From Candidatus Omnitrophota bacterium (GTDB lineage Bacteria; Omnitrophota; Gorgyraeia; Duberdicusellales; 4484-171): a stretch of 64,000 nucleotides of DNA. Location of the stretch: the NCBI GenBank assembly GCA_021735655.1, contig JAIPGM010000001.1:161728-225727 (forward strand). The letters are read 5' to 3'. Below the pieces are notes generated by a model. That model worked only from the letters and a program-made list of their open reading frames with translations. It had not been told where the DNA came from and ran no database searches. Both the position numbers and the translations under genes were made by a program. Below, piece by piece: positions 2 to 63,561 of the stretch (position 1 is its first letter; the number at the start of each line of letters is the position of its first letter).

Positions 2-1240
2 CGTCTTGATCCAGTACGGGATAAATTACTCTATGACTATCTTTTAAAGCGTTTAATGAGAGAGGGTATGATTGGAGCAGCAGTTGATTTTGAACAAATG
101 ATGCAGGCTAATTCCCTTTCGGTTAATCTTGCCCAAGTTGCGACTAGAAGATTGTTGGCCGATATAGCTATTTATCACACCGAAGAATTTGCTTTAGGAT
201 TACATCTCCAAACTAAAGGCGTGCCAACCTTTATTATGCCTCCGGCAATTAACCCTTTTAGTTATAAAAATATTCCCCTAGCTGATAATTTTATTCGGGC
301 AACTATGGTTAAATATGGTTTAGATCCCAATAAATTTACGGTTGTTGAAATATCACGTTTCGATCCTTTTAAGGGGCCGCTGGAGGCCATTCAGGCTTTT
401 GTGCGTTTATTTTTGGATAATCCGGGATTGCAGAATGATTTACAATTTGTTTATGCCGGAAATATGGCTGACGATAACCCTAAGGGAAAACGCGATTTTG
501 AAAAGATCGATGCCTATTCTCGCTATCTTAGAAAGAAATTTCCTAAACTTAGGAAAGCCTTGTTTTTGCTCGGTCTTGGGAATAAACCCGGGACAGTAGC
601 CTTAAATTGGGCCCAGAGACGCAGCTTGCGTGTTGGTGGTCAGTTTGCTCGGCCATTTTCTCGGAAAGAGATAGGTCGACTCAACGGTGTTGAGATAAAT
701 GCTCTTGAGGTTAATGCTTTACAGCAACAACTTGAGATGGAAAAAAGAGACGGTAGGTTAGTTATTTCTTTACCGCGTAAAATAGCAATACAGCCTTCAT
801 CAAAAGAAGGTTTTGGCTTAGTGGCGGCTGAGGCTACCGGAAAAGGTACTCTGGTTATCGCTTCTTTGATCGGTGGCCTTAAAGCGCAATTAAAGGATTT
901 GCTTGCGCAAGCTTCTTGGTTGGGCATTAACTATACGCCGGAGGAAATTAGTCAATCTTTAGAGGTGTATGACTCAATGGATTCTGATCAGCATAGAGGT
1001 GTTGTTTTCGATGTGGCTTATTTGGAAAGAATTAATTTATATCAACGGCTTAATCAACGAGAATTCGTTTTGGGTTTAGCTACCTCTCTGCGGGTGGCTT
1101 ACGAACTGGCTCATAAAAATCCAGATGTCTATCGAGAGCTCGGTTTAGCTGCACGTTGCCAGACTTTAGATAAGTTTATTACTCTAGCTAATGTTGAGAA
1201 CCGCTTAGCCGCCGCTTCCTTGATTGTTGATAATCAGCAG
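2..1240 (+). other. Polyprotein unit S0: C-terminal half of a GT4 glycosyltransferase, trehalose synthase (TreT)-like
   Basis: EISRFDPFKGPLEAIQAF, NMADDNPKGKRDFEKI and SSKEGFGLVAAEATGKGTLVIASLIGGLKAQL match the remembered TreT/GT4 C-terminal Rossmann motifs (SRFDPWKG; EGFGLxxxEAxxKGxPVI). The N-terminal GT domain is not in the window. Confidence 0.6.
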
Positions 1241-4200
1241 CCCTTGGATAATGGTAAGCCAGAAGTTCCGATGCCTTCTTCTTATTGGATCGATCATAGC
1301 CTTCTTCATGAAATTGATAATGTTTGGGCTAACTTGGATTGGATTAATCCCGGGCCAAGTTTAAGCATAGCTCGCCAGATTGAGAAAAATTTTAAGCCAG
1401 CACAAGAGCCAGGTTTTTTAAGAGTTAGCATAGATGCCTTTGGTCCGCTTAACGGATTTAAAAATCAAGTATTAGCTGAACATGAGCAGTATTTTGATTC
1501 CGAGGTTTATAAAGATTATCGAGCTGGCATAATTCATGCTATTGATAATCTTTGGCAACACGGCGGAAAGTACGGTGCCTTATTTTTGATGGCTCAGCTT
1601 AGAGGACGAACCGTACGCTTTACTTATTGTTTGCTAGATCGCGGTGATGGTTTTATTAATGACGATTACAACCATGTTCGTTTAGAAGAAGCCGTTCAGG
1701 CACATAGAACATTTAAACGAGCCGGCAAGAATGGTATGGGCCTTTATTATATGGCGATAAAGCCGGATTATTTTTCAATCACCGCGGTTAATTGCTACCG
1801 GGCTGTTGCCACAACTCAAGCTCACTATTGGGAAACTGGCTACACTAAAGAATGGCCGTTTTGCCCGCAACAAACTCCGGTTAACAAGGGGGTGCGGGTG
1901 ATTTCGGTAAAGGATGTAGCTTTAGGCCTTTTGCCATTTTCGAATATGCAGCCGTTAGATAATGGCCGTCGAACTGATGAAGAACGCCTGGATTTTATCG
2001 GATTTTTAGTTGAGTCATATTTAGAGGCTTTATTTACTTTCCGGAGGTTAAGAGCAAATAACAGCGAAGTAGCCGAGATGTATCTGCCAGCAATTTCCGA
2101 AACTGCCGTTAGAAAGAAACGAGCCAAATGGGTAGTTACAGCTGTTGAGGTTGCCCGTGAGGCATTTCAGGTTATGGCTCGAGCTGATTTTCGACATTCA
2201 TCCGGCTTAACCATTCGTTCAATCTTTGATTCAATTTTGGCTTCTGGCGGTCGCAACCAAGCAGCTAATGATCTAGGAGTCGATCGCGCTAGCCTTACTC
2301 GCTGGATGCATAGCTTACCTAATGATTTATTAGGTGGGTTAGATCCAGAATTAGCAGTCTTCAAACAAAGAATCCTTGATTTATTTGATGAAAACAATAC
2401 TCGACCCCTAGACAACGGTAAAGAAAATATAGATTTATTAGCGGTTACAGCAGTTAAAAGAGAGGACACCTCACCGTGGCTGGCGGGCCCTCTCTCTGCT
2501 GTAGCCCCTATATATATAGGTAAACAGCAGGGGCCGCTAGATAACGGCCGAGCGCCTTTGGATAATGGCCAGCCAGCTAACTTTTGGAAAGTTTTGCATT
2601 CTGGTATATACGTACTTCCGATATATTACACTCGACTTTTCGATACAGCTAAAGACGCAGGAATTGGAAAATATACTTATGTAGTGCCGTTTGTTCGTGA
2701 TCATGTATTGTCTTTAGGCCATCAAGCGATACTTTTCTTACCGTTTTCTTTGCAGTTACCTTGGTCGCAATCTCCTTATGATGCGGCTGATTGGCGTTAT
2801 TTTAATACTGATTATATTGATTGGGGGCTTATCCCTGAGGCTCAACCTTTTCTAGGTAAGTTCGATTATTACGGTCATTCACAGCGTAGCGTTGATTTTC
2901 GATCAATCCGGCCACGTGAATTATTAATCGGAAAGGCCGCCTTTCTTAATCTCAGAGACAATCGAGAAAAACAATACCGCCAGCGCTGGGAAGATTTTCA
3001 AAGGTTTGTTAACAATCAGCGAAGTAGAGGGCCGGAGTGGGATTTAACCCATCTTGGTCATTACCGGGCCTTCAATGATGTCTTGGGTAATGATTTTGGT
3101 TTATGGGTTCATGAAGGGATGTATTGCCCTAGGCAGGATACCCATCCAGATGTTATCAAGTACAACGTTGCTGAGCAAAATAAAAATATGCAATATTCAG
3201 ATTTAATTCAGTTCTATCAATACCAGCAATGGATTGCTTTCGGCCAGGCTCGCGATATGCTTGAAGGTTTGCGCAATATTGGTGTCTTTTATCTTTTAGA
3301 TAATCCTTTCTTTCATGCTAAGGGTGGTATTAATTTTTGGACCCAAAACATCATTTCAAGAGATAGGCATTATGAATTTTTTGATCGTTCACCCGGTGTA
3401 CCCGGAATCGGTAGTGACCCTGAACAATTCTGGACATCTTTGGTTCCTTGGAATTGGCCTAGATTAAGAGAGTTGGACTATGAACCTTTCTTAAACCCTT
3501 ATCATTATTATTTAGGTGATTTGGGCGCTCAGGGAGTTCGGGCTGATGCTATTCATTTTCTTTTTCCTTGGATTCATTGGGAACGCGGTCCTTATGCTGC
3601 TAATTTTCAGAGTTGGGAGTCCCCGGGTCATGATTTACTTTGGAGATTAGACAACGTTTTTAATTCTTATGGAGCTTTCAGGCTTGGCGAGTTACTTGGC
3701 CCGGGTTTTGAAAGTATTCAGAGAATGGGCTTTGATAATTATCACTGGCATTTCTATCGGATGTGGAAATGGGGTGGCGGACCTGATTTAAATCCGGGTT
3801 GGAACGCAAAAGCTTTAGAGTTACATGATGGGCCGCGGGTTTGTGTTGACCATGAACACGGGTTCTATCCTTATGCCGGACACGCTTATTTACGGCATCG
3901 TTTGGAGGGCCCGGGCGGTCTAAAAGAATTAAATAGTCGTTTCCTTTTAGGCAGTTCGGATATAGCTATGGTTTATGCCGGAGATGAAGTAGCCGACAAC
4001 TGGTGGATAAATAACCCTAATCTGCCTGAGTGGATGATGGATCGTAATTGGGCCACTCGAATGCCAATGCAGGGCGATCAGGATTTTGATCTTTCAGTAG
4101 CCTTGTCCATGCTTGAGCATCGCCGTTGGATTGGCCAGCGTCTAATTGAGCGGACGCCTTTGGATAATGGTAAGCAAGAGTTTAATCATCTTAGCTTGGT

Positions 4201-7200
4201 TGAATCTAACGGTGAACAAAAGTTATACTCAGCCAGTAGTTTAGTAATATCTCAAAGGGGAGTCTATTTAAGCCCGACATCAACCGGGCCGAAAGAGGTA
4301 ATTTCTCAGATTCAACTTAGCCCAAGCGGAATTAAAGTTTCCGGGGAGTTAACTAGCCAGGAGCCAAAATCCCGGCCAATAGATTATCGTCACTCTTATG
4401 AAATTAACTTTTATTTTGAAAAATTAGCTAAAGCCTATGGCCGCGGTTTGTTTGTCGGTATCAATGACGTACAGCTTTGGATTCGTCTTAGCCAGGCTTT
4501 GGGTGATTTTTTATGGGGCGTTTTGCGTCTTGAAACAGGGATTTTTGATATTCCCGATAGAAAATTACGACGCCTGGTGATTCAGGAAGCGCTTTATCAT
4601 GAGGTGATGACTAGTGCCTTGGGGCTTTCAGTGGCTAATCGCGGCTTGCGTGAGTTTTTTGCAACCATTTTAAGTGTCAGCCATTTTTGCTATCTTAGCG
4701 AGATAGCTAAAGATCAGGATAAGCTTAATTATCGTTTAGGGATTCTGCAAGCTCTTGATCGGGGTTTAATCCAGATGAGTGATTCACTGGCTGGGCTATA
4801 CCGTCAAATTGCCGAGTCTGGCAGTTTACCTGATCCAGCAACCTTGGTAAAAGCAGTTATAACCCATATTAATGAAGAAGAACGATACCATAGTGACCGG
4901 CGTTCATTTAGGGATTATGTTCGAACTAAGTCCGAGAATTTTAGCGGACGCTTTACAGTCGGAAATCTTACCCAGGCGGTATTAAATGATTCAGCTTTAC
5001 AGTTAGAGTTACAGGCAGAGTGGACAAATTTCTTGGGATTTTTAGCTAATTCACAAACCGTAGCCCGTGCCTGGCAGCCGAAAATTAAATTTATAAGAGG
5101 TCCGCGGGGCATAAAGGTTATTAATCCCCAAGGCGTACCGGATCAAGGCGGCTATCAATTCCAGCTGCAAAGTTTCCGGGCAATTTTTGACTGTTTGGGT
5201 TTGCCTAATCCGCTTAGTGAGCCAGCTGCCCTAAATAGATATTTAGGTTTTCTGCCTGAGCCTCCTGAGTATGACTCCCAAGCCGTAAATTTACCGGAGT
5301 TAAACATCAGTCAAATTTTACCCGGAGTAGCTGTTGTTTATCCGGATAGTTTGGAAGCTAATCAATTAGCGGTAAGGCGAGCTTTGTATGAATTGATGAA
5401 TTTTCGGGTTTGGAAGTTAGCCGTTGAAATACGTGGCGCCTTAGGTACAGAAGATGCTTTGTTTTTTGATCAGCATTGTCAGGTACATTCCTTTGTTGAT
5501 GTAGCCCAAGGGTGGATGTTAGATTTAAATCCCCAAAGCCCGATAGTCTATGATGATGTTTTACCCGGCGGCCAAGCTTACGAAGCGCCGGAGCAGCCGG
5601 ATTTAGCCGAACATGAGCGATTGCATCAAAAGGCTCAGGCAGTTTTTTCAAAAGTTTGGGCAATCACTATGAACAGGTTCTTGCGGGATCAGCGGATGTT
5701 TGGCGGTGAAGCCGTGGGTTTAGTTGGCTTTACTACAACCGTACCAATATTATATCGTTACATACAGCAATGTAAGCATTCTGAGCCGGAATACTCACTA
5801 CAGCGACCTTTGAATAATGGCCTAGGCATACTTCAATATTTACAATCTTTACGTCGTAGCCAGGAAACCGAGGCTGCTAGAAGGGTTAGTCTAGACCAAG
5901 GCTTTGGGCAATTAAAAAGTTTATTAGTTGAAAAATTACAGTCGATTGATTCAACCACTTTAAGCATTGCAAATCTTGATCAGGCTTTGAATGAAGATAG
6001 CCAGGCGATATTTTTAACCTTAGAGCAATTAAGAGAGGCACGCTTTCAGGCTGAGAGCTTTCGTAATGGGCAGGTAAGTATGTGTGATCTTGCTAGCCTA
6101 GCTTTGGCCGCTGCCAGCGAAGAAGTTTTTGGCCAGAGACACTTAGTTAAAATAGTTGTTGGCTATTATCGGGTTGATGAGCAGCTATATAAAAAACATT
6201 ATTGGGTTGTGATTGATGAAACATTGTTGATTGATATAACTTATGGTCAGTTTGATCCGGACCATCTCAATCGTATTTTAGTTGCTACAGTAGATGATTA
6301 CTTGAGATTAAAATTAGAATATGGTACAGAGTTAGAGCCGCTTGATAATGGAAAACAAACTCAAGTTCAGCCTACTTGTTTAGAGGCTAGGTGGTGGAAT
6401 AATTATTATCCCGGGGTTATCGAAGGAACTGGAATAAGGCCGACTGCCCGCTCACTTAGCTTTGAGCAGATCGAAGAAGTGGTTTGTCTATTACTTCTCG
6501 ATCAAGCCGGCCAGGAATTGGTAGCTAAAATAATAAATAGAGAACTGCCCGATGTATATCCTTCGGTTCGAAGAACCGCTCTTAAAGCTATGGTCAGGTT
6601 CGATCATTACGAACTTTTTGGCCCGAAGATAATTACTTGTTTGCAGGATGTAGTCAGAGATGGAGCTGAGATGTATCAGCCTTTTGCTCTTTATGCTTTG
6701 GCTCAGACCCCGGCTTTTAATGGCCCGGTTGCCAATAGATTTGCCGAGGAAGCACTTAAGGGGACCCTTAAACCAAGCCCAAGAAAGCCTACCGCAGCCG
6801 AAAAAACTGCCTTACAGGAAGGGTTAGAGCCAAATACTCAAGCGATTAGATTTAAATCCCGGCTTGCTTCAGTTGAATATTTAAAAGGAGTTTTAGCTCA
6901 ACGTCAAGGTTGGGCTCGGGTTTGCCTCGGAACAGTACCACATTTTAGTCGGGTTAGCAATCGCGCTTTAATCAATAAATTTGCTGCTCAGGTATTAGCA
7001 GCTGATAAAAAGCTTTCTTCTAGTTCAGCTCAGCGACGCCAGAAAGATAAGTCAGAATTTTGGGGTCTTGAGCAAGCTGAGTTTATTCATCCAGCTACTG
7101 GCCATGAAGCTTTGGTTGAGCTGGCCAATGATCCGGAGTTATCATCTAGTGATGAAAGTCCTTTGGTTGATCAAATACTACATCAGATGGAGGAATTAGG

Positions 7201-10200
7201 TTATGTGCCGATATTGCGACCCAGTAAATTTCAGCTTACTGAGCCAGCTCAAGGTCAGGAAGCTGAAATTGATCGCGAGGCGCTTTGGACCAAGGATGCT
7301 GTTTTGATGATTTCTACTAAATTCGGAATAGTTCCGGTTTCTTCAGCATTAGCCAATCTTAAGGGCGGTGAGTTCGTCAGTGGCTATGGTAAGCGCGGCA
7401 GCTTTATGATTATTCCGGCAGCCGCTCTAAATTCAAAACAGCAGCTATCTGATATAATTCCCGAGGTTCCGATTCATGTATTTCCTTCGGGATTTTTGGT
7501 GATCAATGATCAGGGCGTAATTCGTTTAAGAGGAACCTCGCATATTGACACTTCTTTAGGAGCAATTCCGATTATGGCCCGGCCAGAATCAGGCCAGTTG
7601 ATGTTAATCGATCCTTTGTTGCATCAGGTTGCCCGTACACACCCTCGCTATCGCGATCACTATCAATCAGTAGTTCAAGAAGATGGAGTGCGTTTTATTG
7701 ATGTGCCCGAGCCTGAACGTCATTTAAATCCTGCTAATTTTGGTATTCTTCCCGGTGGAGAAATATTTATGCCTTATGCGCCGCGGACTAAACAAGTTTT
7801 AATTGAGGCTGGGGTTAATGAGCAGTATATAATAATGTTACCAAGTGAATTTAATAAGTATTTACCAACCCTTCATGTTTTGGCGGGGAGTATTGGCTGT
7901 TTAGTGGCCCAAGCTTTTCATCCGGTTGAGAAGCGAGAGCCGCTCGACAATGGCCATGAAAAAGAAAAACGGCAAACTAGATCCCGAGCAATAGATATAT
8001 CAACCAAAGGTGCTGAAGATTTATTGTTTACTGAGCTTCAAACAGGGAGTTTAGTTAGTTTAGTGGTTGATGGCCTTGAGTATTGGCTTAGCCTTGACCA
8101 GGGCGATGAAGTTTGGTTTGATTTATATCGGCCTAAAGATGATATCATTGGCTATATTTATTTTCGAAATGACGCAATGCCAGCCAGAAAAATAGCCAAT
8201 TTTGGCGGCCCGAGCATTGTTCCGGCTTACCGGGGCAGGCATTTGTCGCGAGTTCTTTATTTTGTTTATTTTCGTTATCTTTGGCGCAATAATTATATCC
8301 CTGAAGAAGACTGTTTGACTATCGATGATCGATTGGCCCTAAAGCTTTATCATGAAGCTAAAAAGTTTTATTACGATCAAGACCATACCTTTACTCCGTT
8401 TCAGATTATTCCCCGAGCCGAAAAGACTAAAGCTGCAAAACCTTTAGATAATGGCCACGATATGGTTCAAAAACAATTATTTGAGTTAATTAAGCGTAAG
8501 TCAGATTCGATTAAAACTTTCTTAGAGCCGTTTGAAGCTTGCCTTGCTTACAATGGAGTGTTAGCTTTGCTGATTCGAGGAAGGCCTGACTTGAGCGTTA
8601 AATTTTTGCTTAAGAAGATTGGCTCGGCTGAGCATTGGTTTTTACTGGCTGAAACTGTTTTAGGAAATCATCAGTTTGTGGTTGATATTTCGCCGCAAGG
8701 AAAGATGTTTACCGATATTGAGGTGCTGGTTGTAGATTGTGCTGAAGCCGGAAAAATAAATTATCTATATGAAGATTATACTGTAGTTAGCGATCAAGAA
8801 ACCGAAAACTTATTGCGAGCCTTAGCAAGACAAAAAGGGATGAATGAGTTCTTGCATTTAGTTCATCAATTACCAGAAGAAAAATGGATAGGTAGGTTAC
8901 CGGATAGTGACCAGTCGATGCCACTTGATAATGGTAAATTAATCAATGAAGGTTCAGAAAGTTCTTTTTCCGATATAACTAATTCGATGCGGGTGACTTT
9001 TGTTATGCCGATGTACAATGAACAGCAACGCTTACTTCCCAAGACTTCTGATAATCCCTATGGTGAAGATGCTTTAAGGGTTAAAGTAAGTCAATTTAGA
9101 GAACTCGAGCAAGAAAATCCTAATTTCCAGTGGCGGCTAATTGCCGTAGATGACGGAACTCCCGGGTTTGCTTCAGCCAAATGCCTTGAGCAGATTTTGG
9201 CTGAGATTGATGCCCAGAATCGGGAATTTAATATCTATTCTAAAGTTTTCGTAGTGGTGATAACTGAACAAGAAAAGAAACTCCTAGGCAGCCGAAAGGG
9301 TGGAGCGGTTTTGCGTGGCTTTCAAGAGGCCCTAAGCCACGGTTGGGCTGATTATATCGGGATTACTGATACTGATATTTCCAGTAATGTTAACCAAACT
9401 AAAGATTTGATTTTGGCTCTTCGCAAAGGTGCTGGAGTAGCCATTGGTTCACGCCGCCAAAGCGGGGCCGAAGCTCGCGGCATACCGCTTTTAGGGAGAG
9501 TTAGCACAGTTATTTATAATTGGTGCATTCGTTTGATTTTGTGGCCGCTTTTTTCAATTCGTGATACCCAGCGCGGTTTTAAACTTTTTCAAAAAGAAGT
9601 AATTGTCAGAATATTACCCTATGCTCGCGATCACCATCTTTCTTTTGATACTGAACTGTTACTTTTGTCGCGTTTAGCCGGATACCAAATAGCTGAGGTG
9701 CCGATTGTCTGGATTGATTCAGCTGAGGCAACTACTTTGGTTATGTCTAAAGATGCTCCAGCGATGCTCTGGCGAGTGATTAAACAAGCCCGCCATATTT
9801 TTAATAATCCTTTTCGCGGCCAAAAGCCGCTCGATAACGGCCGAAAAATAAATCTATCAGTTAGAATGCTCAGAAAAGCTAGATTAATTACTGTTCATGT
9901 TGATGCTGGAGATTGTCCAGCCGCCTTAGCTAGCGCGATTGATAAATTAGTTTCGGGTTTAGGGCAAATCCAAGTAAGCCGTAGTAATATTGTCTTAAAC
10001 ACCGCCCATCAGAATAGCCCTATGGATATTGTTTCGTCGGTAGGCTCTCTCTCAACTGAACAGATAACAACTTTATTTCCTGAAGCTGTTTTTCTGATTG
10101 CTGGCGGCAATGTGTTTAAATGCTTAAGAAATCTAGTTGAGTCATTGGCTGTCGGCTCAGTGAACAAGCGAACTGTTAGGATTTTTGTTCTTTACGATTA

Positions 10201-13200
10201 TACCTATGGCCAAGGCTCTAATTATAGCCCTGAGCAATTAGCCGGTGAATATTATGATTATTTTAGCGATATGCTTTCAGTCTATAGTGATAGGTTTAAT
10301 CTAGCTGTATTTTATCTTGCTCAGAATCAATTCGAGCAGGAAATTTACGGTAAAAATTTATCCGGGCCCAATTTATCTTTAGCAATTATTGAAAAAGAAG
10401 CTTTAGCTAGTCAAGTACCTTTAGATAATGGGCGTAGTCTTGGGGAGTTAACTGCCGAAGGCTACAACTTAAAGTTTCTAGCCCGCAGTTCTGATTTAAG
10501 AATGACTGCCCATTGCCGAAGAGATGTAAGTTTTAATAGTTATCTTTATGATTATCGCCTGGATCCAGAGCATACTTATCGTCAAGCCCAATTAGTTCCT
10601 TTAGTTGCTCGATCGGTTAAGGAAAATGCTTTTAGAAAGTCTTCTGATTGGCAATACTTGCCGCAGCATTTGAAAGATTTATACGATTCCGGTAAAGTTT
10701 TGATGATTGCTTCCCGAGCCCAAGCTAAAGCTAAGCCTAGCCGGTATTCAGCCTTAGTAATTTCTGGCAGGACTGAGGCTTTTAGCGGCCGGATGGGTAT
10801 TTTACTCTATGACAATCGGCCGATCATTGTTTCAATTTTAGATAAGCCTTTTTTCATTGAAGCTAAAGGAATCGGGGTTGCTCAAGGAGGTTTTAGCTCA
10901 GTGCATCGGCGCTCGGGCCATAGATATGAAGTTACCGGGGCTCAGCGTTGGCAAGCTTCCTTAAAAGAATTTACCAGTTTAGAGCTTGAGCGAAAAATCA
11001 GCCGATTTTTTGGAACAGCTGATACCCCACGCGCCTTAGCGGCGATAGTCTATAAATATCCTCAAATGGATCAGTTAATTAGTGATAGCCTAACTAGCCA
11101 GGCTGAGCGAAGAGAAGCTAAAGAGCAGTTAGGCGATAGTTTAGGGATAATGTTGCGGCTTTCGCCTTCGAGCCGCCGCTTTGCTTATAATTTAGAACAG
11201 CGTCACATTAGAATGCTTGGTGAAGCTTCAGCCCGCCTGCTTTGTTCTTATCTTCCCCGAGTGCATACTTCGCCGCATTTTGAAAATCTTCTGGAGTGGG
11301 CCGAAGGCAGTGAATTCTCTTGGTCAGACTATGGAGATATTGAAGTGTTATTTGCTCAAAGTAGTTATCACTGGTCAAGGTCACTGATTAATGCCCGTCG
11401 GATATTAATGTCTTATTTGGAAACTAGTATTAGCTGGAATGTAAATTTATTAAAAAAACTGGGAATAATCGAAACCGAAGCAGAATTTATCAGCGAATAC
11501 CTAGCTGGCTTTGTTGCTTATGCTGAAACTTTAGACTGGATAACTCCTGAGGCAATCGAACGTTTAGCCCGAGTCCGCTCGCCTAAGGAGTTTGTTGACG
11601 TAATGATTTTTGAAGTATTCGCTTTAAATGCTTACAACGTGTTTAAAAAACAAACTTATGAAACTATAGTTGAAGTTAATCAGAATAATTTAGTAGAAGA
11701 ACTTTTAAGCTCGGCTTTAACTATTGCCCAGCGGCAAGAGAAAGCTCAACTTGTTGCTGAGTTAAGTGGACATATTGAAGCAGCTAAACAAGGAGAGGCT
11801 TTTTTAGGTTGTCGAATAAAAAAATCTCAAGCTAATCAAGGGGTGCTTACGCCGGTAGCTCAGCCGGTTAAAAATAGTTCTTGGGCTAATCCCTTTTTTG
11901 ATCAATTCGCTTATGATTTATGGCATGCGCTACTTTTTGATGATCATAACCTTTATGATTATGTTCAGGCTAAATGGGATTATACTGTTGGTGAAGAAGG
12001 GGCTTTTAACGTGGCCGGATTTTATCTGCTTGATGCTCATTATCTTGGGTTGTTGCGTTCGCGCACCAGCATGCATAATATACCGGAAAAATTATATATG
12101 TGTTCAGCTGGATATGAAATGACTGCTAATATCAACAAATTATTGACTGCGATTAATCGAGTTAGTTTGTGCCCTCAGGAAAATACCTTGGTGCGTTCAA
12201 CCGTACGTAACACCTTACAACATGCGATTTCCCAGCGCCTAAGTAAGTGGCGCCTGGCTCGGGCTTTAATATTAGTCGTTGAATCTAACGGCGAAGTTCT
12301 TGCCGGAGACGACAGCACTTATGTTTATATTATGGATTCTGGTCCGGGCATGCCGATTGATGCGGTAATGCAAGGCGATTGGCGAAGACATAGTACGATG
12401 TTTGGTACGGATTTAAAAGGTTTTCGTGAATATAGGGACGTTGAATGGATTCTTGATTCTTGGTCAAGCAAAGCCGGCGGACCGCAACGTTGGGATGGTC
12501 TAAGAGGGGGGCTGGTTGAGGGAGCTTTAGTACCGGACAACATGCCTTTATTTGGTACTTTATTCGGTATGCGGCTTAAGCATGGCTTAGAATCGAGTAG
12601 CAAACCTTTAGACAACGGTAGAGATTCTCGGTCAAAAGGACAAAATCTTGGTAGTTTAGGAACGGCTAATAAGGCCCCTCCGGTAAAAACTTACAATGTC
12701 GAGAGTCCTTTTAATCGGTTTTCGCTGCGCCTTTTAGATTTAATTCTAACCTTATCTTTCTTGCCTCTGATTATTCTAGCTAGCCTACCCATAGCTATAT
12801 TTGTTAAATATCAGATTTTTAAACACAAGACTGGACAGTCAGTTATTTTTAAAGAGCAGAGATTCGGCTATAAGGGTAAACCGTTTATCATGTATAAATT
12901 TCGTACTTATATCGGCGATAAAGATAATCCTAAGGCAGTTTTACTGAGCTTGCGTTGTTTGGGGCTAGATGAGTTACCGCAGTGGTGGAATATCTTAAAG
13001 GGCGATCTTTCAATTTGGGGAGTGCGCCCTAAGTTACAAGATGATCCCAGCTCTGACAGTGATTTCCAAGCACACCTGGATCAGATCAATGATTTACGCA
13101 AGCCGGGAATAATTAGTTTAGCTACGGCTGATGTGCACGCTGAGATGGAGCATGTTTCTTTTTCAGCCGAGCATCGCGATCGTCAGATCGCCTTTGATCT

Positions 13201-16200
13201 TTATGAAGCAGAGTATTGGTCATTCTTTTTAGCTTTTAAAATTGTTGTTTTGAATATCTTTGCTCAATTTAAAGAAGCAGCCAGGATTGTATTCCGAAAT
13301 AAAATTTTAGTTATTGTTGCCGTGCATATTCCGCAAGCCGAGCAGCCAAAAGCCGGCCCAATTTTAAATATTTTAGAATACTTAAGCCAAAGATTCCCTT
13401 CGAAATATTATAGTGTCTTTGTTGGTTTTCCGGATTCAGGAAATCCCAATTTAAATTTAGATTTAGCTATTCCTCAAGGCTTAACCATTGGCTTAGGTGA
13501 AGGCGATGAATACAACATAGTTAATTCTCAAGGCCTTAAACTTAAATTTAGCTGGCAGTTTGAGGGGCCAGACGATTTAAGCCAAAGAACTTTAAAAATT
13601 GGACGCCACAAGTTATTAATGCCATTGTGCGCTGAAAGTTCTCTTCCGGTATTTTCCGGAGCTAAGAAAAAAATTCCCCATAAGGCTATCTTCATTCCCT
13701 TTATTGCTTTTCGTCCATGTATTGTTACCTGTATGAATGATTTAATATTTCTCAATCTTCCGATAATTGGATTAGATACCGCTAATGGCATATTTTTGTT
13801 TGTTCCCGGCTCAACCCAGATTGATATAGTCGGTACAAACAAGCTTCTGGCCGTAGCAATTAATCATTCCGGCAGGGTGATGGGCAGTTCATTTAAAGAT
13901 TTGGACCAAGTCGTTCCTTTAGATAATGGACGTCAAACCATTTCCCACTTCCGAAGTGGGGAAGGTCAGAGCCGGACCGGCCCGACATCCCGTAATTTCC
14001 CCCTGGATAACGGCGGCCGGAATAATGAAGCTATCGAAAACAATCGGTTTTCATTCGCTAATCGTCTAGGAAAAGTTTTAGTTGCTACTGTTATCGGTGG
14101 AATTTCTTTAGGGTTATTGTATTTATTCGGCGGCCTTGATTGGTATACAAATATAAAAAATAGTATTCCTTTAGGGGCAGTGATTTTCTGGCCGGGGGCT
14201 TTCCTGGATATGGTTACCGGTGTTTTGATCTGGTTAATTTCCGATATCGTCGGTCAATATCTTAATCAGGGTAGAAGCATTCGCTATCGGCAAAGTTTTA
14301 AAGTTGGTGCTTGGGGAGTATTTCAAGGGTTGGCTACTCACATTTTGTATAATTTAGTTGAACTGCTTCCGGTTGTGCCTTTACCTTTAGCGCAAGCAAT
14401 GTTTCGAACTATTTTTACTCTTTTTGGCGGACTGACTATTAACATTTTCTATACCGTGGTTGTAGCCCGGGCTCGTAAAGCATCTAAGGCTGAAGGTTAT
14501 AGCGGCCTAAAGGAGCGCCACAAGGCTTATGATGTTATTTTTAGTAAGTTTATCGTCGCCCCAATCAAAACTTATTTTATAGTTAATCTATTACCTCCGG
14601 CAACGCGGGTTATTAGCGAGCAGGCTTGGGAATACTTAATGAAAGTTTTTGATGCTTATTTGATGAACCGTAAAGATTCACTTTTTTCTAGTTATATTCT
14701 AAATTTATTATCTAGAAAAAAACCTTTAGATAACGGCCGCTCCGGGCAGTCGGATGATCAAATAACTTTGGTTTCTGATAATCTGGTTGACTCATTTAGA
14801 AATGTTAGACAAAGGCTGGTAGTAACTGTTAGGCGCGCACAGATGTCTAGATTGGATTTTAAGCCGGGGATAGTGTCACTTCAGAATATGAGCCCAAAGG
14901 TAGATTATTTCTGCCTTTCTTCAATATCTGAACGCCAAGAAGATATCCAAGCCTATAGGCAAGTTCCTTTAGTACAGGATGGTGCTAGTTTTGGAGAAAG
15001 TTACAGTGAAAAATATCTTATTGCTCAGGAACCGGATACCTTAGTTTTAGTTGAGGGTGATGAAGGGTTGATTGCCAGTTTTGATTATTCGCTTTGTGGT
15101 TGTCTAGTCATTCGGGCTAGAAATCTTTTTGGCATGGCCCACTTAAGTCCATTTATAGATTTTTCGGATGAAGAGATGGAAATTGAAAATGATCGGATTT
15201 ATTATAAATATTTATCAGTTTTAGATTATTTCAAATTACAGGGATATAAAGATGTTCAAATTTTTCTCAGTTTGAATGAGCTGCTTCAGGGATTTAAAAC
15301 TTTAAAAGCTAGGCTTTGGTCGGCTGGTGATAGCGATGCGACTAATCGTCAGAGAGTGGTAGATCTTCTTGGGATTGAGGCTAGGCAACGCGGCATAGCT
15401 GTTGTTGATCGCCGCCTTCGACAAAAGTCTGAGGTTCTAGATGTCCTGGGTTTTCCGAGAAAAATGATTAGCCGTCAATGGCTTAATCGCGGCACAAAAC
15501 CCGAAAGTTTTGAAATAATATTTATTGAGACTAGAGATGAGTTGCCAGTAGCCATAAACTCAGAGACTCAACAACCCGAGATTGAATACTTTCAATTCGC
15601 TTGGCCTGTTGTGATACCTCTCGATAATGGCCGCCGGAAACTACCAAATGATGACTGGATTTGGGTTAATGGAGAGAGTTTGCAATTTGTTGGCCGGGAC
15701 GGTTTATTGATAACAGGAATGGAGGGCCGGGGTAAAAGTTTTTTGGCCAGAAAAATATACGATAGCGATGATAGATGGAAAGTCGTATCCTGCGGAGCTA
15801 CTCATGTATGTATAAGGAATGAATTAGCAGAAAGAGCGCTTTTAGGCAGACGTTTATCCGAAAATAATCTTTTATATTCCCGGCTGTCAGGAACAATCCC
15901 GGTAGAACTATCGTTAGATGTAGTTGTTAGGTTGAACTGGGTTATGGCCTTAGACGATCTATACCGAGAAATTTTAGGGGGATTGTTGGCCGATGCCGGG
16001 CAAAGAGAGTCTTTGGGCCTCAAAATTATAGATATGAGCGATCTAGACGTAACTCGGCAATGGCCGAAAGTGTTGAAGTTCATCAATGCGTCTATTGTGA
16101 AACCAGAGACTTACGATAAAGGAAATAGTTTATTTCAAGTCCCTCTTGATAATGGTAGACGAGCTCAAGTTGAACAGGAACGGGAATTTTTGATCCAGAC

Positions 16201-19200
16201 AATCATAAATGTTTTTAGCCAAGGTGAAGGATTATGCCTGGAGCCGGCGCAGATAGAGGCAGCTATTGCTGTAGATACATCATTTGATGAATACAGGATA
16301 GCTAGAAACTTGCCGATAGTTATTGGCCTAAAGGGTAATATTTATGAAAATTGTCCTTTGGCTAGCAAGCCTCTTCTTCTTGTGTTTACCGGCAGAGGAA
16401 GCATAACTAAACCAGAGCTTATCTTCAATGCCTACACCCAGCAAGGTTTAGTCAGAGAAGCAAGCCGTTTAAGTCGTTCGATGGAAACTAAAAATGCAAT
16501 TTGGGAGATACCTTATCATGGCAAGAAGACGGCTTTCATATTGGAAGATAAAAATAACTGGATTGCTTTGGCGGCAGTTTATGGTCCTGAAGATATTTAC
16601 CAACAAGGACTATTGATCTGTAAGGGTGGAGATAGGATAACCAGGTTAGGTACAGAAATTTCTCAAGCCGCTGGTGAGGCAGATGAGGAAGCTATATTTT
16701 CTGATTATTCCCGGGCCTTAGTGGTTGCTCGTCTTTTAGGATTTTCTATCCTTGATGGTCCAGATATGATGCGCCGGGTTAACCGGCGGATGAGCGCTAT
16801 GATCGCGGCAGCAAAAGAGACTGTGGCCGATATCAATGAGTTTGCTAAGGCATACCCTGGTTATGAGGCTGTTGATACACATCACATACTTAAACCTACT
16901 ACCAGTAATCCGGTGGAAGAGGGAGGTTTCCCGCACACTGAATGGATGGTGACTAGTCGAGGGGTTGTTCAGGGGACGGTTACTGCTTTGCGTTGGCTTA
17001 GACAGGTTCTTGACGTTGGAGAGAATAGGTACCCTGAGGAAGTGGTAAGATTTGTTAAAAATTTGAATATATTTGGAAGTCCGATGAGCTATATTGTCCA
17101 AGGCTTTGGTGATGTTGGCAGCGGCATCACTAAGCTTTTTTTGACTATTTTTAAGATTTTTGGGTTTCAGGCCAGGGGTTTTAATAACCGTTACTTTGCA
17201 ATTTATCGCCGCGAAGGATTACCTAAACCATTTTTAGTTGAGGCGCGGGAGATCGTTGAAGTTTCTCCTGATGCTTTAGATCTAGGGAGATTACTGGCAA
17301 TGAAGAGTTTTGATGACCAATTACAGGGGGCGGTGGTTTGGATAGCTAATCCAATTAACCCGAAAACTAAAGAGCCAGTATTTGGTCCTGCTGATGTGGA
17401 CAGAGTAAATCAAGCTCTTGCTGAAAGAGGTGTTACTGCTATTTGGGGTGATCAGACAGTAGTAAATGAACTAATTTATCAAAAGGCAACCGTGCTTTTT
17501 CTGGCTGCAACCGCTAATGTTATTAGTGAACTTTCTCAGGTTGAAAGATTGCAGGTTAAGATTATTTCTGAGGGAGCTAATAATGCAGTTAAACCTGAGT
17601 TAAGAGAGCCTTTAAGAAAAGCTAATGTATTTTATATTCCTGGTGAGCTTCTTAACGGCGGGGGCATATATGCTTCTAAGGAAGATATTCGGCATAACCA
17701 TACCGATGGATCAGAATTAATAAGGCAACATCGGCAATACTATTATATACATGTAACTGATGAGATCGACACATTGGCTCTTCACCGAATGATTTCTTTC
17801 CTTGAGATTTGGGCTGAGTCAGCAGGAAATTTTTCTTTTGATTTAACCGTCCATGTAGAAAAAGTTGCCGGCCGGATTTTTGAAGCAGCTGATAATTTGG
17901 TAAGAACCAATAATACACGTTTGAGAAAATTTACCCAAATTGATCAAAAGAGAACCTTTGATCATCAAGCCGGCCGGCCGACTTTGCCTTGGCGTCATAG
18001 TCTTTATGAAATTGCCATTGAAATGGCACCAATGGGAATACTTTATCATTTGCGGGATGTCGGTAGACACTTATCTTTACTTAATAGATTTAAGGTTGCA
18101 ATAAAGGAAGATGGTCAGATAGATAATTATCATATATGTCGTCTGCGTTTTGCTTTATTTGAGTTGACCAAGCTAGGCTATTATTTAAAAAGTAACCAGC
18201 GCAGAAGGTTAATCGGCCTTCTTCCTGGAATAATTACCGATGAAAAGTGTGATGGCCTATTAAGGAAAGATGCCATGTTTTGTTTGGCAATGGCAATTAG
18301 GTGGCAGGAAGAAGAATCCTGTAAATCTGAGGTAGATCGGGCAAGAAAATTATATTTAGGCATATTACAAAATCCCCTTGAAAGTGCTCAGCTGCATACC
18401 TGGGCTCAGCATTGTCTCTATAGGATTTTCGGAGAAAATTACTTCCGGCGGATAAGCGCTGATTTTGATCGCTTAAACGGAGTTAACTTACCCAAGCCGC
18501 TTGATAACGGTCGGGATAGTTCGGTCGGGATTACCTCAGAACCGTTAAGAATTTTAGCCGAGCTAATTTCGAATAGTTATCGGACTAAGGCTTTAGTAGA
18601 ATTTTTGCAGCCTTTCTTAGATTGTGAATCTGTTAATTATTTACAAGAAGAGATAGCAAAGCATTGCCAGCTACCGGCCTGGGGTGTTGTTTCTTCTAGC
18701 CATTATCTTGATGAAGGGTATTTCTATTATGGTTTAAAATCCGGTATTGATCGCTGTCTCGAAAGAGGAGTTATGGTTGAGAATGACGGTAACAGATTAT
18801 ACGTTACTAAAGATTCAGAGGATACCGTAAAATATAGCGGCCTTGACGAAACTCAAGAAAACCAGTGGGGAATTTTTATTTTTCCAAGCGAGTATTTCAA
18901 TCAGGCTATCAATTGCGGTTATGCCGAGGCCGGCTTAAGGCTTTCACATAACCGCTTAGGCATAACTACTTATCCATACTTCAAAAGTTCTTTATCGCTT
19001 GCGCCGGCACGCTTTCTGATAATTGATAGATCTAAGGCAGATGAACATAGGCACCTGGAAGGCCAGCCGAAGCTAAAAGATAAACTTCAAGCCTTGACCG
19101 AAGCAGGATTGAAGGTTCTATGGTTGCCGGATTCTTCCGGCCCATTCTTTGACCCTGATTTCCAATATGCTTTCGGGGAGTTGTTGTTTAGTAATGATAT

Positions 19201-22200
19201 TCCGGAAACCAATCGCTTTCTTTTTTATCCGTCCGCAGATACTCAAGATCTTACAAAAATCATCTGGTGGGTTTTACAGTCGTTAAGAATGAGTAGTATA
19301 AAAAATCGGCTATTACATAATATGGAGTTAGCTCGGCAATTTAAAAAAATCGGCCCCTTTGATAATGGGCGAGCTGATTTTACAACAGCAGACGAACAGA
19401 TCGGTAATCTTTTTGCTGAGGCAGTTATTACAGGAGATAATGTTTTAATTGAGACTCATTGGGATGCTGTAGCGGCTAAGAGAGGCGGCAGTTTGAATAT
19501 TTTAGAACATGCTGGCTTAAGGATTACAAGAAGTTTAGCTTTAGGAATTGTACCGCGGGCTGGTGAATGGCCGGATAGGGTTGAAACCGATCAAATCATT
19601 CTGAGTTCATCTCGCTATGGTTGGATCGATTCTGAAAGAGATATTGAGCATTTGTTAAGCGGCTTTGATCAAGCCAGATTGCTTAATTCGTTTAATCTTG
19701 GCCATTATTATCAGGGTTGTCACTATCGAAGTTTCCTAAGCTGGCTAGCGGTTTTAAAGAGTAGTCATTTCCCGGCAGTTATTTTTCATTTCATAGGTGA
19801 GCTAATTAATTCTTGGGGTATTAAGCCAGCTGCTAAGAGTGATTTTCCAGTTTTGGCCAGTCGAAGGGATATCTTTTCTTTCGTTAGCGTGCCTTATGTT
19901 TCAGATATAGAAAAATTAGATTTGCCAGTTGCAGTGTTTTTTGATGGTAAGCTTAGTTCGCTTAGGCGTGGCGATAGCCGGAAACAGCCAACTTTAATAT
20001 TAGCTTATTGGCAAGCTTTGAATGGTTTTATTGGTTTTAAAGAACAGATAGCTAGGGAAACAGCAGAATTTCAGAATACCCCTTTAGATAATGGCCGCAA
20101 AGAGCATGACATCTCTGATAGTACGGTAATCCAATGGCCGCTTAATGTAATTGTTAAAGATATGCGCGGTTTATCCAAAGGCGAGATATTAGCTGTTGTT
20201 AAAACCGGTAAAATATTTTGGGGAAGGGAAATAGTAGGAGCTATTTTTTCTGACCGCAATATTGTTTTTGGTAAAGTGGTCGATGATAAGTTTATAGTAT
20301 TTGATGATTGGTTAATTGAAAGAATTCCTGGAGGATTGTTAGAGGGGTTGCGGAGAAGCATTTTATTTTTGCCTTATTTAGGAAGTATTTTAAGAAACAA
20401 GACATCGTCAATAAATAAACCCCTGGATAATGGCAAGAAATATAATTATCGGCAAGTCCTAGAGATGGTTGACTGTTTTGATAGTGCAAGGTTAGAGGCT
20501 CACTTATTTAGAGCTCTTGGCAGAGTTGAGACTGAAGCCGTATCTATAGCTGGTGATATTATTAGGGCGGCTAGAAAATTTGAACGGATAACTAAAGCAG
20601 TAAAATCTCTTTATAGGAAAACTTACGGCAAGCTACCTAATTTTACTCTTGCTTTCGATCCTTCCGGTCAAGGTATGTATGGGGCGTATCAGGAGGATGA
20701 TACAGCCGGATTTTTTGATCATATTGGCGTAGCTCCAGAAGATGTGCTGCTTGAGGTAGGCAGCGGCGATGGAAGCATTTCGGATTTCATGGCCCATATG
20801 TTTGGGATTAAGGCAACTGGGATTGAGGTTTGGGAGCCATATTATCATTACGCAGTTTTCTTAAGAGATGAAGCAGTAAGAAGAAGATTCATTCCAGAAG
20901 GTAAAGTAGATTTTTTAAATAATAATTTAGTAGATGTTGATTTTTCAAAGTATTCTTTAGTGTACTACGCTGCTCTTGGCACAAGAAGAAAAAGTGAGCT
21001 GGCTGCTAGATTGCTTGGGGTAAGAGAAAAATCCAGGATATTAATTCGGGGTTCACCTGATGAGTTAGTGGAAGGGATTATCGCATCACATCCTGATTTT
21101 AGCTTAAGGAAGCTTGAGATAGAAGTTAATGAAAACCTTACTGGAATTAAGGCAAGGGTTTATACTCGAGAGACAATTACCAGTTACCAGCCGGTTCTCG
21201 ACGTTCCTCTAGATAATGGCCGAAAAAATAACCCTCAGATGGTCAGAGCGCGCTTAGCCGCATTTGAAAAATCAATCGAGGGCATCGTGCCTAGGGCAGA
21301 TCCGCTTTATGACCATTTAATTCGTTTTTATCAATATCCTTTGAATAATTTGGGTGAACCTGACGAAGAGACCTATGTAAGGAATAATACCAAGGAGCAG
21401 GAGCGGGAGCTTCTTAGATTCTGGGCCGGCCATTTCGGCCTTCCTAAAAATTACGGCGGTCATGTGACTATCGGAATCGGTCAGGCTGAATATTATGCCA
21501 TGTACGTGGCTAGCAATCGATTTCCCAAGGCTATATTTTATATTTCTAATCAGGTCGATAGCCTTCTTTATGATACTTTACAGGTGTTGGGCATTGATCA
21601 AGGAAGAATAAAGTTAATTAGGTCTTTAGAGAATGGCGAGATCGACTATGGTGATTTAAAGAGAAAGATTAGGGAGAATTCATCATGGCCGGCGGTGGTC
21701 TGCTTGACTGCTGGCAGATTCCTGGGGGCGGTTGATGATTTAGGAAAAGTGGAAGGAATTTTAGGGAGCCTGGGCCTAAAGCATAAACATATTCATTGCA
21801 GCATGTCACCGTTAAGTATAGGCCAGTCGTTTTTGGAAGATGCGGCAAAGATAGATTTTCAACATGGCTTAGATAGCATGAGTCTACCGTTGTATCATTT
21901 TGTAAGGTGTCCGATGCCAGGAGTCATCGTTCTTACCAGAAGGAAATACCTTCAGAACATTGCTTGTAGTCAAAAAGCAGCTGAGTATGTTAACTCTAAC
22001 GACACCACTAATTCTGGATCACGTAGTGGTCATGCTCCGCTTTATCTTTGGTTTGCTACAAAAGTTATTGGGACTAAAGGATTTAAGGCTCAGGCTGAGC
22101 GGGCCAGGGAAGTTTGTGTTTCTATTAAAGCTCTATTTGACCGTTACGGTTATCCTTGCCGGTTCACCGCGCAAAAAAATACAATAATCTTTGAGCCACC

Positions 22201-59337: not shown

Positions 59338-60477
59338 ATGAGTTGGAAAAAGCTAAATCATAAGACGGTTCCCGGCAACAAAGACTTAAACCTGACAACA
59401 TGGAAATTTAGTCCGGTTTCGGGAGACAAACATGGGGTTATTTCTTTGGAGCGAATCAGAGATAAAGCAAGCACAAAGGCAAAATCTACTCTTCTTTATT
59501 TACCGGGAACCTGGGGAAATTCTACTTTAATTGATTATCGGGAGAACTACGAGTTTCGTATTTATCTTGCTCGGAACCAGGTAGACATTTTTAGCTTAGA
59601 TTATCGGACCCACAGTGCTGATATCCAAGACCAAGATAATTTATCGTTTATGGCCGATTGGACTTATGGGGTATTTTTGGAAGATATTAAAAAAAGCGTC
59701 GATTTTATCAAGAAAATTACCAAAACAGATAAAATATTTATTGCTGGGATGAGCAGAGGTGGGACTCTGGCTTATTATTATGCTTGTCGTAATTGGTTTA
59801 GCGATCTTGCCGGTTTGATTATCCTCGACGGCTCTCTTTGGTGGGATTATTTTTCCTTTGATCACAAAATTACCTTAAAAGAGGCCTTAGATTCTTTTCG
59901 TATTCAGGCAGCTTTTCAAGAAGAGACAGCTTCCCGAGAACAATTAATGAATGTTGGACGGTACTCTATTAATCTTAATTTTACTAAGCAGCTAATACAG
60001 CAAGCGATTGATAACCCCAATGCTCCTAGTCCAGTTGAGGGGCCTAAGAATTTAGCGGAATATATGGCCGAAAGGATACATAACAGTCGAGGGCCTTGCT
60101 GGGGGTCTAAAGGTATAGCTAATCTATTTGAAGGGTATAATAATATTGAAATTTTGCTAGCTTGGCTGCTGTCTAAGGATCCTTACTGGCCTATTGTTCA
60201 GATTGCTGAATCAATATCTTTGCACAGCCAAGGTATAGGGTCTTCTGAGATAACTTATGCAAATCAAATAAATGAGGTAGATGTGCCAGTAATTGCTTTT
60301 TTCTCTCAATGGTACTATTCTTTAGATGAAAAACTAAAGGCAACAAAATATATAGGCAGTCGCGATGTTACAACGCAGATATTAAATAACTGGGGGCATG
60401 CTGATATTCTTTTTGGTGAATATGCACATAAAAAAGTCTTTAAGCCAATGTGTAGATGGTTAAAAGAAAAGGTATAG
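59338..60477 (+). CDS. Alpha/beta hydrolase fold protein
   Basis: Nucleophile elbow IAGMSRGG (GxSxG) and C-terminal NWGHADILFG (His of the triad). Substrate unknown. Confidence 0.55.
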   Translation: MSWKKLNHKTVPGNKDLNLTTWKFSPVSGDKHGVISLERIRDKASTKAKSTLLYLPGTWGNSTLIDYRENYEFRIYLARNQVDIFSLDYRTHSADIQDQDNLSFMADWTYGVFLEDIKKSVDFIKKITKTDKIFIAGMSRGGTLAYYYACRNWFSDLAGLIILDGSLWWDYFSFDHKITLKEALDSFRIQAAFQEETASREQLMNVGRYSINLNFTKQLIQQAIDNPNAPSPVEGPKNLAEYMAERIHNSRGPCWGSKGIANLFEGYNNIEILLAWLLSKDPYWPIVQIAESISLHSQGIGSSEITYANQINEVDVPVIAFFSQWYYSLDEKLKATKYIGSRDVTTQILNNWGHADILFGEYAHKKVFKPMCRWLKEKV

Positions 60478-60544
60478 ATGTTAAACTGTATTCATGATAA
60501 AATAGTTTTCATTTTACTGGAAAGGAAGGGATTAAGGGCAAACA

Positions 60545-63267: not shown

Positions 63268-63561
63268 ATGAAAGCCGACCAGTTAAAGGGCAAGTGCATG
63301 ACTATTAACGAAGAAATTATTTCTTGGCGAGAGATCGACAAAGAGGTAGTATTTCTTAATAAACAGGAAAAAAGTTTTTACGAATTAAACAAAACAGCTG
63401 AGATCATTTGGCGCCAGTTAGCCAAAGGCGGTAAACTGACTCAGGTAATTTCTCAGGTTCAAAAGAAATATAAGAAAGTAGGTAAGCAAGACATAGAAAG
63501 AGATGTAATTGCTTTTATTGCAGATGGAATTAAGAAAAAAATATTTATTGTTAATAAATAA
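63268..63561 (+). CDS. PqqD-family protein (RRE-type peptide-binding chaperone-like)
   Basis: 97 aa. VVFLNKQEKSFYELNKTAEIIWRQL...QDIERDVIAFIADGIKKKIF follows the PqqD pattern. It is TAATG-coupled to the downstream radical SAM gene. Confidence 0.6.
   Translation: MKADQLKGKCMTINEEIISWREIDKEVVFLNKQEKSFYELNKTAEIIWRQLAKGGKLTQVISQVQKKYKKVGKQDIERDVIAFIADGIKKKIFIVNK

Follow-up and report, generated by a model that had tools for sequence, protein, structure and literature searches.

The first 29.3 kilobases (kb) of a 64,000-nucleotide (nt) stretch of DNA from a Candidatus Omnitrophota bacterium (GenBank assembly GCA_021735655.1, contig JAIPGM010000001.1, positions 161,728 to 225,727 of the forward strand; here called the window, with positions counted from its first letter) are taken up by one open reading frame (ORF) that is already open when the window begins. 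Taken as a whole, the evidence makes it highly probable that the left edge of the window cuts through a gene for a giant multi-enzyme protein, the modules of which are parted by junctions bearing the pentapeptide PLDNG. Truncation of this kind is commonplace at the edge of a window; what is new is the junction motif, undescribed as far as the literature shows, in which nothing relevant was found on PLDNG, on the peptides LDNGG, RAEVR and RSEAR that turned up in relatives, or on Omnitrophota polyproteins. Since the two preprints on giant genes of this phylum leave open whether the products remain one chain or are cut, the junction motif matters more than the truncation.

The ORF (2..29311, forward strand, its 5' end cut by the window) was delimited from stop counts, from the guanine-plus-cytosine (GC) content by codon position and from an identical contig in the Logan assemblies. 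Frame +2, the translation of which begins RLDPVRDKLLYDYLLKRLMREGM at nt 2, runs through 9,769 sense codons with zero internal stops to a TGA at 29309-29311. Over nt 1-1,240 it contains no stop, against 49 and 25 in the two other forward frames, and over the 29.3 kb its single stop compares with 546-1,140 in the other five frames, none of which stays open for more than 160 codons. Given the base composition, the probability of a stop-free run is ~1e-12 for 413 codons and ~1e-284 for 9,769. The GC content of the three codon positions falls in the order GC1>GC2>GC3 (0.52/0.38/0.33), and the GC3 of 0.33 sits within the range of the adjoining genes (0.30-0.37). The overall GC of the ORF is above that of its neighbours, an excess that stems from amino-acid composition, and with GC3 matching the neighbours a foreign origin of the ORF was rejected. 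The ATG given as the start in the list of ORFs that accompanied the sequence (56..58, forward strand), with a listed length of 9,751 amino acids (aa), is merely the first ATG past the window edge: it encodes an internal Met19, and the 18 residues that precede it are covered by the alignments to homologues. The preliminary description had held that the frame carries no stop from nt 2 and that the true gene exceeds the listed 9,751 aa, and both statements were borne out, the second by the alignment of residue 1 with the interiors of homologues.

What precedes the first junction (module 1; 2..1240, forward strand) was identified, based on TreT, the relatives P0001 and P0009 and Pfam matches, as the C-terminal ~410 aa of a TreT-like glycosyltransferase (GT) of family GT4, with a putative GT-B architecture. 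The two motifs that the preliminary description had quoted for this unit are present, SRFDPFKG, a basic phosphate-binding stretch, at aa 118-125, and EGFGLVAAE, the E-x7-E motif, at aa 269-277; this is the combination by which the C-terminal Rossmann domain of a GT4/TreT-like GT-B enzyme is recognised. Pfam PF00534 (Glycos_transf_1) matched aa 260-318 only, with 33.6 bits (cut-off 26.4) and over positions 94-150 of the 172-position profile. The closest relative found, P0009, aligned through its residues 335-733 with window residues 1-408 (51% identity, E 1e-133), and the alignment of the stand-alone homologue P0001 (629 aa) starts at its residue 180. In archaeal TreT (PDB 2x6q; E 1.3e-17), residue 195 corresponds to query residue 75, an alignment that puts window residue 1 near TreT residue 121. 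The window lacks the Gly-rich loop GGGVAEM of the N-terminal Rossmann domain (the nucleotide-sugar loop of the GT-B N-half), which P0001, P0009, P0010 and P0011 carry 125-130 residues before the position aligned with window residue 1. Because the loop falls outside the window the gene must continue upstream, and because the homologues align from interior positions at window residue 1, some ~180 N-terminal residues of module 1, including its nucleotide-sugar-binding half, must be encoded there. Together with the 9,769 visible codons these bring the predicted product to at least ~9,950 aa, the listed 9,751 aa being no more than a minimum that reflects where the window begins. The earlier estimate of at least ~200 missing residues was thus right in that part of the N-domain is missing and too high in size, the alignments giving ~180 aa (P0001, P0009) or ~120 aa (TreT); likewise, the whole C-terminal Rossmann half is in the window, as had been claimed, although not alone, being accompanied by the last ~75 aa of the N-half (TreT ~121-194).

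Module 1 shares with TreT the C-terminal Rossmann domain, SRFDPFKG and E-x7-E, and differs from it in that the similarity is patchy and weak, an insertion of ~90 aa is present at aa ~169-259 of the module, the N-domain is outside the window, and the module is part of a putative polyprotein instead of being a free enzyme. The NCBIfam equivalog for TreT (NF041139) gave 63.4 bits against a cut-off of 775, and module 1 is classed as TreT-like only. An AlphaFold2 model of the module, built on an alignment of three sequences, had a mean predicted local distance difference test score (pLDDT) of 42.7, too low for the fold to be read from it.

A second assembly containing the gene came from an exact-protein look-up of the downstream oppA, which led to the Logan contig SRR12088349_9023 (129,842 bp). 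In the stretches compared, 19352-41070 (21.7 kb) and 40920-64000 (23.1 kb), contig and window agree at 100% identity; the contig ends at window nt 2497, inside the giant gene, and of its copy only a fragment of 8,937 aa is left. The two independent assemblies agree on the sequence, and the 5' end is lost in both. The break in the Logan contig lies 37 nt upstream of the only tandem junction of the gene (2534-2569). A scan of GTDB genomes (species representatives) with a protein pattern from module 1 found no relative, and the exact 37-mer of nt 1-37 had no match in JGI metagenome contigs or IMG/VR. The source gene itself turned up neither in the word-indexed protein search, where module 1 had two distant matches and aa 419-1390 none, nor in the exhaustive HMMER search, and since the giant Logan fragment is absent from both protein search libraries these negatives need caution where this genome is concerned. 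In the same vein, exact-protein look-ups missed three window genes (59338-63264) although the Logan contig carries identical genes of equal length.

The pentapeptide PLDNG occurs 27 times in frame +2, where 0.008 copies would be expected from composition, and is absent both from the remaining five reading frames of the 64 kb and from every other gene of the window. The copies, all on the forward strand, start at nt 1241, 1952, 2405, 2534, 2555, 4157, 6338, 7940, 8441, 8921, 9827, 10418, 12605, 13916, 14000, 14723, 15617, 16142, 18497, 20081, 20420, 21206, 23480, 26255, 27536, 27623 and 29078. The first junction is PLDNG-K (1241..1258, forward strand, with PLDNG itself at 1241-1255), and at 2534..2569 on the same strand two copies stand in tandem as PLDNGRAPLDNG. 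The residue that follows is Arg at 16 sites, Lys at seven, His at two, and Gln and Gly at one each; the ten residues that precede the motif are not conserved. The codons vary synonymously, with 25 distinct 15-mers among the 27 sites, and the constraint is therefore at the level of the peptide and not of DNA or RNA. A repeat at the DNA or RNA level as the origin of PLDNG was rejected on account of these 25 codon strings, codons varying also in the junctions of the relative's locus L005 described below. Internal translation starts after the junctions were rejected as there was no enrichment of Met at these places; nor is the GGNGGN that encodes part of the relative's LDNGG a fixed GGAGG. The sole one-mismatch variants in the protein are PLNNG (aa 1936, nt ~5807) and PFDNGR (aa 6452, nt ~19355), the latter of which lies inside module 20 and may be a decayed or alternative junction.

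The 27 copies divide the visible protein into 28 segments, comprising 26 modules of 23-920 aa, one C-terminal module of 72 aa, and one spacer of 2 aa between the tandem junctions. A junction motif stands at each boundary between modules, no domain match spans a PLDNG, and every Pfam, NCBIfam or PDB match is confined to a single module. At least ten distinct families are found in separate modules, none of them dominating, and blastp among the modules gave no match, so no paralogy was detected and an origin in paralogous repeat units was rejected. As predicted proteins, the larger modules have the size and termini of stand-alone proteins. Module 2 (232 aa; 1256..1951, forward strand), an apparent GHKL-type ATPase or kinase in which the N-box and G1-box were recognised by eye and Pfam found nothing, corresponds end to end to the stand-alone protein P0014 (210 aa; 37% identity, E 2e-47), and the C-terminus of P0001 lies 16 aa past the end of its alignment, compared with 13 aa past the same point for the end of module 1. 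Module 3 (146 aa; 1967..2404, forward strand), with an apparent helix-turn-helix (HTH), GGRNQAANDLGVDRASLTRW, seen by eye only and without a Pfam match, is 64-65% identical to residues 668-825 of the long relative P0013; its C-terminal end reads ...DLFDENNTR-PLDNG-K here and ...DLFDENNTKDSASS-LDNGG-Q there. The last module, module 28 (72 aa; 29093..29308, forward strand, the stop codon following directly), is 50% identical to residues 368-441 of P0013, where it is internal and has LDNGG on both sides. A model spanning a decarboxylase module (module 23), its junction and the module after that reached confident scores in the pyridoxal-phosphate (PLP) domain alone; it placed PLDNG in coil at a pLDDT <50, which at that quality is uninformative.

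The exhaustive HMMER search, with aa 1-1200 as the query, returned 420 proteins at E<=0.001, many of them several thousand amino acids (kaa) long and bearing one or other of the modules searched with, at varying positions. The order of modules is shuffled among relatives and not conserved, and on that account conserved order was rejected as a predictor of what lies upstream of the window. Several relatives have junction peptides of their own. In P0013, a complete protein of 5,131 aa, LDNG occurs 13 times (SLDNG 11 times) and DNGG 14 times, the motif being written SLDNGG[R/K]. A scan based on an alignment of module 3 and P0013 found one GTDB locus and zero in metagenomes; the locus (L005; GTDB contig CAZFML010000001.1, labelled Planctomycetia), 12.9 kb of which were covered, includes part of the P0013 gene at 463-12904, and the 12 LDNGG junctions and one FDNGG junction read in that part, too, are encoded by synonymously varying codons. 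The start ATG of P0013 overlaps the stop of a gyrA-like ORF, there is no leader, and the last module is a sigma-70 factor. P0040 (6,699 aa) contains R[A/S]E[V/L/A]R 15 times and P0077 (7,335 aa) RSE[A/V/L]R nine times, and P0047, P0076 and P0012 contain SSP[V/I/L] five times each. Also found in P0013 were a multi-pass membrane module resembling GT2 enzymes and a module resembling an M23 peptidase (27.2 bits, cut-off 28.7). M23 enzymes cleave Gly-Gly bonds, and given the ...NGG junction the presence of this module is suggestive.

Among giant Omnitrophota proteins, a class of up to 147,155 aa termed "multi-enzyme metabolic cluster" has been defined, and it was reported that short-read metagenome-assembled genomes (MAGs) break the giant ORFs at contig ends (Nielsen & Lui 2026, bioRxiv 10.64898/2026.06.07.730766); the words "motif", "junction" and "cleav" are absent from the text of that preprint. 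An earlier description of giant Omnitrophota genes suspected cleavage and lacked information on the points of cleavage (West-Roberts et al. 2023, bioRxiv 10.1101/2023.11.21.568195). The ORF described here belongs to the multi-enzyme class, judged by how it is built and by where its best homologues come from, the Omnitrophota assignment being by best-hit labels only. The threshold of the 2026 catalogue is 10 kaa, compared with the 9,769 aa visible here and the lower bound of ~9,950 aa. As in those giants, many enzyme families (sugar metabolism, GT group 1, methyltransferases, regulators) tile one ORF, transmembrane helices are scattered along it, and a contig or window edge cuts it short; unlike in their published descriptions, an invariant PLDNG[R/K] is found at every module boundary. 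Dockerin, C39 peptidase, SecA-like and S8 domains were not among the Pfam matches at E<=0.001 over the whole ORF, which in its lack of dockerin, C39 and SecA features is unlike the Archaeovorin/dockerin type (West-Roberts 2023).

Comparable arrangements are known from viral polyproteins, such as those processed by picornavirus 3C, potyvirus NIa and coronavirus Mpro/PLpro, in which many unrelated proteins are likewise encoded in one ORF and bounded by a short, lineage-specific peptide. The ORF here differs from them in lying in a cellular genome among ordinary neighbours, in having no identified protease module and in its stricter motif of five residues, and cleavage is in its case putative. 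In MARTX toxins and polyubiquitin-type precursors, units are freed at short sites, after Leu (by a cysteine protease domain) or after Gly-Gly, and the LDNGG of P0013 is superficially like the LxGG of that comparison. The present ORF, however, gave no sign of a cysteine protease domain, of RTX repeats or of a ubiquitin fold, and its modules are metabolic and regulatory, neither toxin effectors nor identical repeats.

Could the ORF be an artefact, i.e., a chimeric assembly, a decayed string of pseudogenes that stays open, or a gene that truly starts at the ATG at nt 56? The list of ORFs does give nt 56 as the start, and many modules are far diverged from known families, with weak Pfam E-values. 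Nevertheless, this is extremely improbable in view of the chance of ~1e-284 for the stop-free codons, the identical sequence in the independent Logan assembly, the clear codon-position structure with GC3 as in the neighbours, the homology of the residues before Met19 to relatives, and the good conservation of some modules, e.g., the decarboxylase (E 3.8e-149, 62% identity to relatives). How far the gene extends beyond the window edge is a separate matter. In the four relatives with a TreT-like module (P0009, P0010, P0011 and P0024), ~155-690 extra residues precede that module, and P0010, P0011 and P0024 have a hydrophobic leader at the N-terminus. The N-termini of P0004, P0010 and P0011 share a similar leader of the form ...F/LKxIAIALxxxFxxxDIxWAxS..., and the leader in the smaller fused relatives suggests a membrane-anchor or signal sequence common to this group of proteins; a similar one could lie upstream of the window. 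It is possible, if rather doubtful, that only the rest of module 1 is missing, with a start ~180-350 codons upstream, a total of ~10 kaa and no further hidden modules, a case that would be a sub-case of a window start within a multi-enzyme giant and not a contradiction of it. Such a short extension would agree with P0013, which opens with an enzyme module and an ATG overlapping the preceding stop, and with P0009, in which just ~155-165 residues precede the TreT-like domain. It agrees less well with the ~300-690 residues, leader included, before the module in P0010, P0011 and P0024, there is no sign of a nearby start within the window, and multi-enzyme giants of the phylum reach 147 kaa and are typically broken internally by short-read contigs (bioRxiv 10.64898/2026.06.07.730766).

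As to what the junctions do, the likeliest reading, to which we give a little short of an even chance, is that they are sites of proteolytic processing. The junctions would be gene boundaries drawn at the level of protein: the precursor would be cut at or beside PLDNG by a sequence-specific protease encoded elsewhere, and soluble enzymes, membrane enzymes and regulators would be freed separately. One chain mixes apparent HTH and GHKL regulators, modules with membrane helices (14, 16 and 27) and soluble enzymes, contents that argue for separation. That one and the same module may stand at the end of a chain, inside it or as a gene of its own also favours cutting, and two types of junction motif, each judged to be under purifying selection, were counted on the same side. 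The fuller proposal, of one precursor of >9.9 kaa made up of unrelated housekeeping-type proteins and separated at PLDNG[R/K], with the motifs of sister lineages co-evolving with a dedicated processing activity, is plausible, with the balance tilting modestly against it. Several observations weigh against this picture. Cleavage at PLDNG is inferred here from sequence only. Searches of the 9,769 aa with Pfam, NCBIfam, PDB sequences and regular expressions for motifs brought up neither a peptidase family nor a catalytic motif, and the rest of the window has no convincing peptidase candidate, the only peptidase-related match there being of the S33 aminopeptidase type (21.1 bits against a cut-off of 27) in an alpha/beta hydrolase at 59338-60477; many modules have no assignable fold, and a novel protease may be among them. 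Five invariant residues make a stricter site than those of most proteases. Arg or Lys N-termini are destabilising in many bacteria, and a cut after the Gly would leave products that start with Arg or Lys. Of the 31 relatives retrieved with a length of >=1,500 aa, 26 have no over-represented motif, P0039 (5,657 aa) and P0056 (4,816 aa) among them, and a junction motif is therefore no general requirement of such proteins. Finally, the upstream DNA was not recovered from GTDB, JGI metagenomes or IMG/VR and the Logan contig ends further in, and the contig of one relative is labelled Planctomycetia.

Without cutting, the product would be one membrane-anchored mega-enzyme in which PLDNG[R/K] serves as a conserved linker or docking element, e.g., as a handle for a partner or a spacing turn. 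This is unlikely enough to rank behind processing, and it deserves to be taken seriously: no protease was found in the gene or window, a junction motif is missing altogether from many long relatives, and the few hydrophobic helices of the ORF could serve as its anchor. Most Omnitrophota giants, moreover, have been read as membrane-anchored multi-domain proteins, with transmembrane helices in the multi-enzyme class (bioRxiv 10.64898/2026.06.07.730766). Passive linkers, on the other hand, seldom keep five invariant residues at 27 sites amid variable surroundings, and an uncut chain would not readily account for unrelated motifs at equivalent boundaries in different lineages, for modules that are shuffled between relatives and also found stand-alone, or for the sigma factor of P0013 and the HTH modules recognised by eye, which would be hard to use while tethered to a chain of several kaa. 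Separation during translation, with PLDNG[R/K] as a ribosomal skip peptide and thus a bacterial analogue of the viral 2A "StopGo", would need no protease, and none is visible; the motif is short, Gly-ended and strictly kept at the peptide level, and a single nascent-chain mechanism would account for its strict invariance. Even so, such skipping is highly unlikely, since PLDNG followed by R/K does not resemble the 2A consensus D(V/I)ExNPG|P, with no NPGP and no Pro after the motif, and the unrelated motifs RSEAR and SSPV would each require a ribosome effect of their own. 2A requires a longer nascent-chain context, whereas the ten residues upstream of the PLDNG sites are unconserved, and 2A is reportedly inactive on bacterial ribosomes.

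The remaining modules that could be assigned, all on the forward strand, are for the most part enzymes of sugar and amino-acid chemistry. Module 6 (529 aa; 2570..4156) resembles GH77 4-alpha-glucanotransferases (Pfam PF02446, E 3.4e-11) and is 43% identical to P0012 (E 2e-120), while module 11 (297 aa; 8936..9826) is a GT2 glycosyltransferase by its matches to PF00535 (E 9.4e-6) and to dolichol-phosphate mannose synthase in the PDB (E 1.2e-3). Module 14 (432 aa; 12620..13915), with a hydrophobic segment at aa 4240, matched polyprenyl-phosphate sugar-phosphate transferases (PF02397, E 1.6e-27; PglC 8g1n, E 8e-13). Modules 18 and 22 gave weak matches to a P-loop NTPase and a methyltransferase, respectively, and module 19 (780 aa; 16157..18496) is similar to Glu/Leu/Phe/Val dehydrogenases (PF00208, E 3.7e-12). 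Module 25 (422 aa; 26270..27535) is like GH100/six-hairpin glycosidases (Pfam PF12899, E 1.1e-13), and module 27 (480 aa; 27638..29077) is a GT4 enzyme resembling mannosylglucosylglycerate synthase (NCBIfam NF041101, E 3e-41; PF00534), with an N-terminal hydrophobic helix (segment at aa 9236); hydrophobic helices were found in modules 14, 16 and 27. The decarboxylase, module 23 (753 aa; 21221..23479), is a tandem double enzyme of the PLP-dependent histidine/serine-decarboxylase kind, which matched NCBIfam histidine decarboxylase in two stretches (E 3.8e-149) and, in the PDB, serine decarboxylase 8jg7 (E 1.8e-70). Its identity to P0003, P0004 and P0005, from MAGs labelled Candidatus Omnitrophota or Omnitrophica, is 59-62%, and in the Omnitrophota MAG relatives the decarboxylase is a separate gene of 923-1,213 aa. 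On two JGI contigs (L003 1231-5664 and L004 1386-5819), a 1,477-aa gene with a match to an intein-splicing domain precedes and overlaps the free decarboxylase gene.

The neighbours of the giant gene are ordinary bacterial genes: besides oppABCDF they encode an amine oxidase, ABC-2 transporters, glycosyltransferases and many fused radical-SAM/SPASM/B12 proteins. The opp operon is followed, from 35259 to 63561 and on past the window end, by a dense same-strand cluster. Its products are a 1,284-aa protein in which three radical-SAM/SPASM units are joined, two B12-binding radical-SAM proteins (722 and 1,052 aa), further radical-SAM proteins, a methyltransferase, ABC and ABC-2 transporters and several GT4 enzymes, and it also includes a PqqD-like 97-aa gene (63268-63561) and another radical-SAM gene that is cut by the window end. 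The whole resembles a cluster of fused enzymes for peptide modification, of the type that makes ribosomally synthesised and post-translationally modified peptides (RiPPs), or for glycans. PLDNG is absent from the genes of this cluster, and the window contains no tRNA (ARAGORN) and no marker gene.

For the biology of these giants the truncation is a matter of bookkeeping, in that any statement of length, start, signal peptide or module count needs a better assembly. The junctions offer more. As they stand, such motifs allow giants to be divided easily into modules before annotation or structure prediction, and the PLDNG sites are concrete candidate cleavage sites that make the question of whether these giants are cut directly testable. 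Three very short modules, of 38, 23 and 24 aa (2420-2533, 13931-13999 and 27551-27622), have no mutual similarity and would come off as free peptides if the junctions are cut. Were the proposal true, bacteria of this kind would be using a polyprotein strategy like that of viruses, and the junction motifs would supply the missing cleavage points of the Omnitrophota giants.

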